Below are positions 66-694 of a DNA stretch of 1,513 nt, piece after piece. The position numbers and the translations under genes were made by a program. Source of the stretch: Escherichia coli (lineage in GTDB: Bacteria > Pseudomonadota > Gammaproteobacteria > Enterobacterales > Enterobacteriaceae). Every line of letters begins with the position of its first letter. Position 1 is the stretch's first letter. Location of the stretch: the NCBI RefSeq assembly GCF_003334335.1, contig NZ_QOWQ01000104.1, one strand, 5' to 3'. The notes beneath the pieces are model-generated. The model saw only the letters and a program-made list of their open reading frames with translations. It had not been told where the DNA came from and did no database searches.

Positions 66-392
66 TTAGCGCTTATGGGCATACACCCCGACTCTCCTGG
101 CTGTTGCTGACTGCCAGTGCCAGCGTCCTTCAAAACAGGCTCCGTCCCCCTGGCTGCAGAATCCGCTGAACCAGATGCACGGCTCTTCCATAAACCTGCC
201 GTTGCTGAGCCGGATAACACGCTGGCGGAGGTCAATCCCGAAAATGCCACAGACCTCCCTGAAGTCCCCATACGCGTTTTCATACCAGTTGCTGTCAGCA
301 TGATGCTGACGGTACCAGTCGCGGGCTTTTTCCTGTGCGGTGGAGGATAGCTCATTCAGTGTATACACGGTGGTGGTGATAATTCTGCTCAT
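66..392 (-). CDS. Hypothetical protein, 108 aa, unrecognised family; sits where a CbeA-type antitoxin is usually found
   Basis: ORF with ATG at 390-392 and TAA stop at 66-68, co-directional with and 18 nt downstream of the yeeT-like gene, with a plausible SD. The translation looks like a globular protein (W/Y/F-rich, mixed charge, four Cys at residues 48, 72, 79, 86 with C-x6-C-x6-C spacing). It lacks the GARLVQEGN..LHYLADRAG..GSCGYVY features I recall for CbeA/YeeU/YfjZ antitoxins. The alternative overlapping frame (35..355) translates to low-complexity S/G/T/A-rich sequence, so this frame is preferred. Confidence 0.6.
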   Translation of the reverse strand: MSRIITTTVYTLNELSSTAQEKARDWYRQHHADSNWYENAYGDFREVCGIFGIDLRQRVIRLSNGRFMEEPCIWFSGFCSQGDGACFEGRWHWQSATARRVGVYAHKR

Positions 393-410: not shown

Positions 411-632
411 TCAGTTCAGAGTGACGTTCATCAGCCGGACATACGGGCCAAAACTGTCCTTACGGCGTTCAGCAAACACGGCCAGCACACCGGGAATATC
501 CTGCACTTCACGACCGGTATACGCCTCAGCACTGCCGTGCCAGCGGTATTTGCCGGTACAGAAAGGAAAAAGACGGGATGCCGGATGTTGTTGGTGAATA
601 CGCATGGCTTCACCACGGGTGATGATTTTCAT
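411..632 (-). CDS. yeeT: YeeT/YkfH family protein (DUF987), 73 aa
   Basis: 73-aa ORF (MKIITRGEAMRIHQQHPASRLFPFCTGKYRWHGSAEAYTGREVQDIPGVLAVFAERRKDSFGPYVRLMNVTLN) with TGA stop at 411-413 and a good SD. Its length and position immediately downstream of the radC-like gene match the yeeS-yeeT / ykfG-ykfH arrangement in E. coli cryptic prophages. Confidence 0.85.
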   Translation of the reverse strand: MKIITRGEAMRIHQQHPASRLFPFCTGKYRWHGSAEAYTGREVQDIPGVLAVFAERRKDSFGPYVRLMNVTLN

Positions 633-640
633 AGTGTGAT

Positions 641-646
641 ACCTCT
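641..646 (-). promoter_or_regulatory. Shine-Dalgarno (AGAGGT) for the yeeT-like gene
   Basis: Minus-strand sequence CAGAGGTATCACACTATG: GAGGT followed by an 8-nt spacer before the ATG at 630-632. Confidence 0.5.
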
Positions 647-694
647 GAAGACAGAAGATAAAAGTGCAAACAAGCGTGATGTGGTTGTGACGGG

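Follow-up and report, generated by a model that had tools for sequence, protein, structure and literature searches.

A conserved pyrimidine-rich segment upstream of yeeT in Escherichia coli, a probable translation-initiation region

The yeeT (DUF987) gene belongs to a recurrent genomic-island cassette in which it follows a RadC-like gene, and Escherichia coli K-12 MG1655 carries paralogous versions of that cassette whose junctions differ markedly in length. In the CP4-6 (ykfG-ykfH) and CP4-57 (lfgB(yfjY)-ypjJ) islands, which have the same gene order as the locus studied here, the two genes are separated by a gap of only 8 nucleotides (nt), which in CP4-6 reads GGTATTAC, and the corresponding RadC-DUF987 gap of a Klebsiella oxytoca cassette is 15 nt. 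In CP4-44, the yeeS-yeeT gap spans 62 nt (NC_000913.3 2076755-2076816); this cassette lacks the antirestriction gene, and yeeR either is fused to the gene upstream of the gap or overlaps it. In published operon tables, each paralogous cassette is entered as one operon (PMC4448311). Toxin and antitoxin transcripts have been detected for the CP4-6 and CP4-57 paralogs, and how CbtA/CbeA-type type IV toxin-antitoxin modules are controlled is still unknown (PMC5371832).

The stretch of E. coli DNA analyzed here (the window, 1,513 nt) contains a gap of the long kind. Here, we compare this gap with its relatives and weigh what it may do.

The locus and its relatives

Every sizeable open reading frame (ORF) of the window with a match to known proteins lies on the minus strand. 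In order along that strand, the genes and the spacer are as follows:

1187 to beyond 1513, minus strand: antirestriction gene (ORF)
695-1171 (to 1186 with an upstream ATG), minus strand: RadC-like JAB-domain gene (ORF), whose TAA at 695-697 bounds the spacer
633-694, minus strand: 62-nt untranslated intercistronic spacer between the JAB gene and yeeT, supported by ORFs, RefSeq and composition
411-632, minus strand: yeeT/DUF987 gene of 73 amino acids (ORF with ATG at 630-632; PF06174 homologues)
78-392, minus strand: truncated ORF downstream of yeeT, labeled in RefSeq 'hypothetical protein ... missing C-terminus'

The window matches the chromosome of E. coli O6:H16 strain 2014EL-1346-6 at 99.9% identity, and the RefSeq annotation of that chromosome contains exactly these genes. 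The RadC-like gene is a 477-nt 'JAB domain-containing protein' at 6343-6819 of the O6:H16 locus and the DUF987 gene lies at 6882-7103, coordinates that agree with a 62-nt gap. The start of yeeT is fixed at 630-632, since 11 of the 12 DUF987 homologues examined, some of them annotated as longer proteins, share this ATG and begin with MKII. The host island is linked to tRNA-Ser, and Ag43 and a toxin-antitoxin pair of the CbtA/YeeU type are among its other genes. An IS4-like IS421 element interrupts ORF 78-392; the end of the element occupies window positions 1 to approximately 77, and the IS421 transposase coding sequence starts at approximately window position 22. Beyond IS421, in the 7122-8604 region of the O6:H16 locus, the annotation shows a pseudogene, truncated at its N terminus, for the 'antitoxin of the YeeV-YeeU toxin-antitoxin system'.

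Two further observations concern yeeT itself. Five DUF987 proteins (P0034, P0037, P0058, P0061 and P0079) include internal stretches, NTAGTAVLKRIPVVKCRIFPVCW for example, that correspond to a different frame of yeeT (overlapping ORF 431-616, minus strand). This points to yeeT copies with a double frameshift or a partial duplication, or else to assembly errors. In addition, copies 95 to 96% identical to the E. coli gene occur on tiny contigs assigned to unrelated organisms, namely, Mesorhizobium caraganae (464 bp, coverage of 0.74) and a Lachnospiraceae metagenome-assembled genome; E. coli contamination or mis-binning is the most likely origin of both.

A first-pass annotation of the window had singled out positions 633-694 as the only sizeable noncoding gap of the cassette, 62 bp long and AT-richer. 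The size holds: the JAB stop codon (695-697) and the yeeT start codon (630-632) lie on the same minus strand with no stop-start overlap. The word 'only' applies within the window, where the antirestriction-JAB junction is 15 nt and the junction between yeeT and the next ORF is 18 nt, and fails for the island as a whole, which has intercistronic gaps of 75 to 120 nt. Those gaps match the spacer in G+C (fractions of 0.44 to 0.50), and most of them end in a purine-rich motif resembling a Shine-Dalgarno (SD) sequence. The spacer is indeed AT-richer, with a G+C fraction of 0.452 against 0.546 for the window, placing it in the lowest 8% of 62-nt windows. On the mRNA strand, where it reads CCCGTCACAACCACATCACGCTTGTTTGCACTTTTATCTTCTGTCTTCAGAGGTATCACACT and is followed by ATG, it contains 20 C but only 8 G, and its pyrimidine content of 66% ranks within the top 1.4% of 62-nt windows. 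Two of the island gaps, at 5751-5841 (91 nt) and 9546-9625 (80 nt) of the O6:H16 locus, likewise have a pyrimidine fraction of 0.66, are as AT-rich as the spacer and end in a purine-rich SD-like motif. None of the island gaps shares sequence similarity with the spacer, their 10- to 11-nt matches being of the kind expected by chance; leaders rich in C and U may nevertheless be typical of this island.

The spacer is the yeeS-yeeT intergenic region of the K-12 reference genome and, in that sense, is already known in kind. The CP4-44 version occupies the same position and has the same 62-nt length, the same core and the same SD, with approximately 92% identity. It differs by a few substitutions: G/T after CCC, CACACCTGTTTT in place of the window's CACGCTTGTTTG, and ATCCCATT in place of ATCACACT. 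Across 5,426 complete E. coli genomes, matches with at least 80% query coverage and identities of 80 to 100% were found at 11,914 places in 4,742 genomes, with a median of two per genome. None of the 40 matches listed has an annotated feature beneath it. Neither the E. coli genomes nor the island contained a second genomic context or a repeated-element family for the spacer, and we therefore rejected the idea that it is a copy of a mobile or repeated element.

The long spacer is confined to close relatives of this yeeT. We surveyed cassettes on viral and metagenome contigs (54 viral-contig loci recovered with a DUF987 profile; a protein scan of genome contigs gave 4 loci). Where YeeT is at most 70% identical to that of the window (RadC, 51 to 82%), the gaps are -4, 8, 9, 11, 13, 14 or 15 nt; cassettes whose YeeT is at least 92% identical are the only group with gaps of 62, 63, 68 or 86 nt. 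The short-junction cassettes (CP4-6, CP4-57 and Klebsiella-type) have the SD motif GAGGTAT(T/C)AC before the ATG, as does the window, and their junctions differ from that of the window only in lacking the extra C/U-rich segment. The GAGGTAT of the window's AGAGGTATCACACTATG recurs in the short junction TGAGGTATTACATG, where the SD lies next to the RadC stop codon or overlaps it and the C/U-rich segment of approximately 54 nt is absent. The first-pass annotation had taken lack of conservation of the spacer among homologous islands as part of the case against its suggestion of a processing, regulatory or binding site. For the most part, such conservation is not seen: the gap is 8 nt in CP4-6 and CP4-57 and -4 to 15 nt in every more distant cassette surveyed, which argues that the spacer is not a required regulatory part of this type of cassette.

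We favor the interpretation that the long spacer arose as a derived insertion of approximately 54 nt between the RadC stop codon and a pre-existing SD, in the CP4-44-type lineage only. The extra segment is flanked on the minus strand by the short repeats TCTGCTTTAA, at the end of the RadC-like gene (695-720), and TCTGTCTTCAGA, which runs into the SD (641-660), and a deletion between these two repeats would recreate the CP4-6/CP4-57 junction CTGCTTTGAGGTAT exactly. Insertion is preferred over deletion because all outgroups carry the short form, and the direction is inferred from the outgroups only.

Length variation and constraint within the spacer

The spacer is not uniform along its length, and the following parts are distinguished below:

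673-694, minus strand: variable CAC-rich 5' part of the spacer, whose length shifts by 6-nt units
638-672, minus strand: pyrimidine-rich core plus SD, TTGTTTGCACTTTTATCTTCTGTCTTCAGAGGTATC, of low diversity
642-657, minus strand: weak hairpin CUUCUG-UCUU-CAGAGG, predicted in minimum free energy (MFE) and centroid folds, which would cover the SD
641-646, minus strand: Shine-Dalgarno sequence of yeeT, AGAGGT, read from the sequence, 8 to 9 nt before the ATG
633-637, minus strand: the five bases before the ATG (-5 to -1), the most variable stretch

An anchored pattern search independent of the spacer sequence gathered 130 copies of the junction. Most spacers were 62 nt (88 copies) or 68 nt (39 copies) long; the others were of 60 and 56 nt, together with one 15-nt K. 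oxytoca junction. Spacers of 63 and 86 nt also occur, in the viral-contig survey. The 68-nt class results from a tandem duplication of CGTCAC (687-692, minus strand). The 5' part of the spacer behaves like a short hexamer microsatellite, although Tandem Repeats Finder (TRF) makes no call. An origin of the spacer as a tandem repeat was rejected, as TRF found none in the window or in the diverged 86-nt spacer (L147), and the hexamer periodicity seen by eye is an impression only.

To quantify variation, we used 107 distinct haplotypes in a 497-nt alignment that included coding flanks of 213 and 222 nt, and parsimony changes were counted on a neighbor-joining tree. The values were as follows:

Third codon positions: diversity of 0.098; 3.4 changes per site
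First and second codon positions: diversity of 0.013; 0.41 to 0.47 changes per site
Whole spacer: diversity of 0.042
Spacer 5' part (673-694): diversity of 0.044; 1.86 changes per site
Core plus SD (638-672): diversity of 0.0126; 0.54 changes per site
Positions -5 to -1 (633-637): diversity of 0.24; 5.4 changes per site

Taken as a whole, the spacer is as diverse as the coding average. The core, in contrast, changes as rarely as nonsynonymous codon positions do, and significantly less often than third positions (Mann-Whitney P = 0.0015), whereas the 5' part does not differ from third positions (P = 0.38). A common variant is present at 1 of the 35 core sites, compared with 28.5% of third positions, and the yeeT SD is almost invariant. 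The lowest-diversity 30-nt window of the alignment falls in the core; a stretch within yeeT (alignment positions 386-427) is equally low. The haplotypes are related and recombining, so these counts indicate constraint on the core rather than prove it. Two diverged spacers, L147 (86 nt) and L080 (56 nt), contain several indels and have only 59% and 71% of the spacer in common with the window, while the third-position identity of their flanks is 82 to 94%. They retain TTCAG(G)AGG and pyrimidine richness, and little else.

Searches for promoters, terminators and RNA structure

The first-pass annotation had seen no convincing sigma-70 promoter and no rho-independent terminator in the gap, and our searches bear this out. 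A consensus scan of the window returned zero sigma-70 sites. With a position weight matrix (PWM), the best coding-strand score within the spacer was 3.7 bits of approximately 17, for a site whose transcript would start inside yeeT; the matrix follows the classic promoter compilations, and its scores are approximate. The top PWM score in the whole window, 7.3 bits, belongs to a plus-strand site (TTCACC-17-TAGTGT, 609-637) that is antisense and lies across the yeeT start. Its -10 element is lost in the majority variant (TAATGG), and the site is thus probably fortuitous. We therefore rejected a promoter on either strand. The sole terminator hit, at 610-622 on the plus strand, is antisense and lies inside yeeT. 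A GalR site reported near yeeS is located at 2076495-2076510, within yeeS and outside the spacer. In the portions covered, data from Cappable-seq, SMRT-Cappable-seq, 3'-end/dRNA-seq (PMC7815308) and two promoter reporter studies yielded no transcript ends for the locus, and a search of the Rho literature gave nothing on it.

RNA-level searches were similarly negative. Rfam 15 assigned no family, the best overlaps being eukaryotic snoRNA models with 18 to 19.5 bits against gathering thresholds of 41 to 43 (E = 0.9 to 3.3). The 80-nt region around the spacer folds at only -7.6 kcal/mol (z = -0.12), and fold stability was not below that of shuffled sequences in any comparison (z = -0.12, -0.12 and +0.23; about -0.1 on either strand). 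RNAalifold found no covariation among 22 distinct versions (-1.97 kcal/mol, with an unfavorable covariation term of +0.4). The only recurring structure was the 6-bp hairpin at 642-657; when we read the variants of its stem, most changes broke a pair and none was compensated. Among the classes tested, the spacer belongs to no RNA family and to no class of promoter or terminator so far described.

The gap had also been credited with short direct repeats. These exist: GAAGA (647 and 654), GTGAT (636 and 676) and TGTGA (635 and 686) each occur twice. They are, however, at the level expected by chance, as the longest exact repeat of 5 nt compares with a mean of 5.56 in 2,000 dinucleotide shuffles (P = 0.90) and the three 5-mer pairs compare with a mean of 2.93 (P = 0.51). 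A repeat search and TRF found nothing inside the spacer. A role of the repeats as a protein-binding site, whether iterons or an operator, was rejected on these grounds.

The spacer as the probable initiation region of yeeT

We consider it likely that the spacer is an ordinary intercistronic untranslated region that supplies the translation-initiation region of yeeT, which we infer to lie at 638-672. Positions 633-694 would belong to a minus-strand mRNA encoding the antirestriction protein, the RadC-like JAB protein and YeeT, followed by the toxin-antitoxin genes; cotranscription of these genes is assumed here from operon predictions (PMC4448311, PMC5371832). The 3' half of the spacer carries the AGAGGT SD, which is complementary to the 16S 3' end and stands at a distance from the ATG within the usual 5 to 10 nt; it is preceded by approximately 30 nt of C/U-rich RNA predicted to be essentially unstructured. 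The slippage-prone, CAC-rich 5' third has no detectable constraint.

In pyrimidine- or U-rich translational enhancers and ribosome standby sites, protein S1 binds unstructured leaders upstream of the SD. The spacer is like these in composition and position only: its SD is immediately preceded by a tract that is 66% pyrimidine and predicted to be unstructured, and both parts are conserved. On such general grounds, the tract may favor docking of the 30S subunit and S1. Constraint at the SD and over the 30 nt upstream of it, with none farther 5' and with most change at -5 to -1, is what is expected of an initiation region. With the RadC stop codon 62 nt upstream, translation of yeeT probably depends on de novo loading of ribosomes. 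The paralogs differ in that the yeeT SD corresponds to the homologous GAGGTAT that forms the whole 8-nt junction and overlaps the RadC stop codon, and termination-reinitiation coupling may be possible there. The earlier impression that the gap is more than a simple spacer therefore survives in part. A yeeT SD and a constrained core are present, and the kinds of site that had been proposed found no counterpart in Rfam matches, stable folding, covariation, a promoter or repeats beyond chance.

One possibility is that only the SD matters and that the rest is a neutral remnant of insertion or expansion, with the low diversity of the core due to sampling, linkage or recombination. No other cassette lineage has the spacer, its lengths (56, 60, 62, 63, 68 and 86 nt) differ mostly in 6-nt steps, and L147 and L080 agree with the window less in the spacer than at the third positions of their flanks. 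Moreover, a yeeT coding stretch is equally low in diversity, and recombination with spacer-less paralogs could raise diversity in the flanks only. We nonetheless regard neutrality as unlikely, given the difference between core and third positions in both changes per site and common variants, and given that variation is free in the spacer segments flanking the core: a purely regional effect should not end at these boundaries. The core also reaches to -39 from the ATG, beyond the needs of an SD, and selection beyond ribosome binding may act on it. This extension is among the points that would suit an RNA-level control point separating expression of yeeT and the toxin-antitoxin genes from that of the upstream genes, by RNase E cleavage in the single-stranded ACUUUUAU, Rho loading, small RNA (sRNA) pairing or an SD-occluding hairpin. 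The pyrimidine-rich, C-over-G and essentially unstructured character predicted for the spacer would suit it as well, ACUUU fits the RNase E preference motif R-N-W-U-U, and the CUUCUG/CAGAGG hairpin would sit over the SD. Yet Rho needs roughly 70 to 80 nt of free RNA, more than the 62 nt available, the hairpin is weak and its changes are uncompensated, paralogous cassettes work without the element, and diverged versions do not keep the core sequence. Such a control point thus appears unlikely, about as improbable as neutrality, and the same holds for its more specific form, in which the 35-nt core, present in thousands of E. coli islands, would be a lineage-specific cis-regulatory RNA that acts through cleavage, Rho loading or sRNA pairing and both uncouples and tunes expression of yeeT, antitoxin and toxin relative to the antirestriction/RadC half.

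Transcription and coding offer less satisfactory accounts still. A promoter within the spacer, recognized by sigma-70 or another sigma factor and perhaps dependent on an activator, that drives yeeT and the toxin-antitoxin genes independently seems very unlikely, even though the spacer is AT-richer than its flanks, TATCTT (655-660, coding strand) has T1, A2 and T6 of a -10 hexamer, and conservation extends to the block CACATCAC upstream of TATCTT. Besides the scan results given above, the -35 hexamer at 17-nt spacing from TATCTT is CACATC (1 of 6 matches), a start from TATCTT would leave a leader of approximately 14 nt beginning at the SD, and no match to the sigma-54, sigma-E or sigma-32 consensus was apparent by eye. 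CP4-6 and CP4-57, with their detected toxin and antitoxin transcripts (PMC5371832), have only 8 nt at this place.

The least credible account is that the spacer is coding, as a TTG mini-ORF, a RadC read-through, an N-terminal extension of YeeT or an antisense ORF (537-698). All three mRNA-strand frames are indeed open across it, TTG at 671-673 opens a 14-codon ORF whose TGA overlaps the yeeT ATG (ATGA), the reading frame is preserved at spacer lengths of 56, 62, 68 and 86 nt alike, and a 53-amino-acid ORF is open on the plus strand. Open frames are, however, expected because the composition is purine-poor: by our own estimate, approximately 1.75 stop codons would be expected, giving P(0) of approximately 0.17. 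Hexamer slippage explains the 6-nt steps, and high-diversity sites, by reading, have no three-base periodicity in any frame. The start codon of the mini-ORF is CTG in 96 of the 107 haplotypes and TTG in only 10, which makes a real leader peptide unlikely, and with the composition argument this led us to reject both the mini-ORF and RadC read-through; RadC paralogs also end at the same ...GLL*. An N-terminal extension was rejected as well, since the 92- to 99-amino-acid annotated YeeT forms are C-terminal or frameshift variants, and the shared MKII start of DUF987 homologues speaks against it. The mini-ORF of the minority variant found in the window (629-673, minus strand) reads MFALLSSVFRGITL.

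With the spacer read as the probable initiation region of yeeT, a widespread E. coli island is tidied up, in that annotation has overlooked no gene, sRNA or promoter in this gap; in itself, this matters little, and its relevance is limited to studies of how CbtA/CbeA-type type IV toxin-antitoxin modules are regulated. The comparative point is the contrast between a free-standing, conserved initiation region in CP4-44-type islands and the tight, coupling-competent junctions of CP4-6, CP4-57 and Klebsiella-type cassettes. This contrast could yield different stoichiometries of YeeT and the toxin-antitoxin proteins between paralogous islands in one cell.
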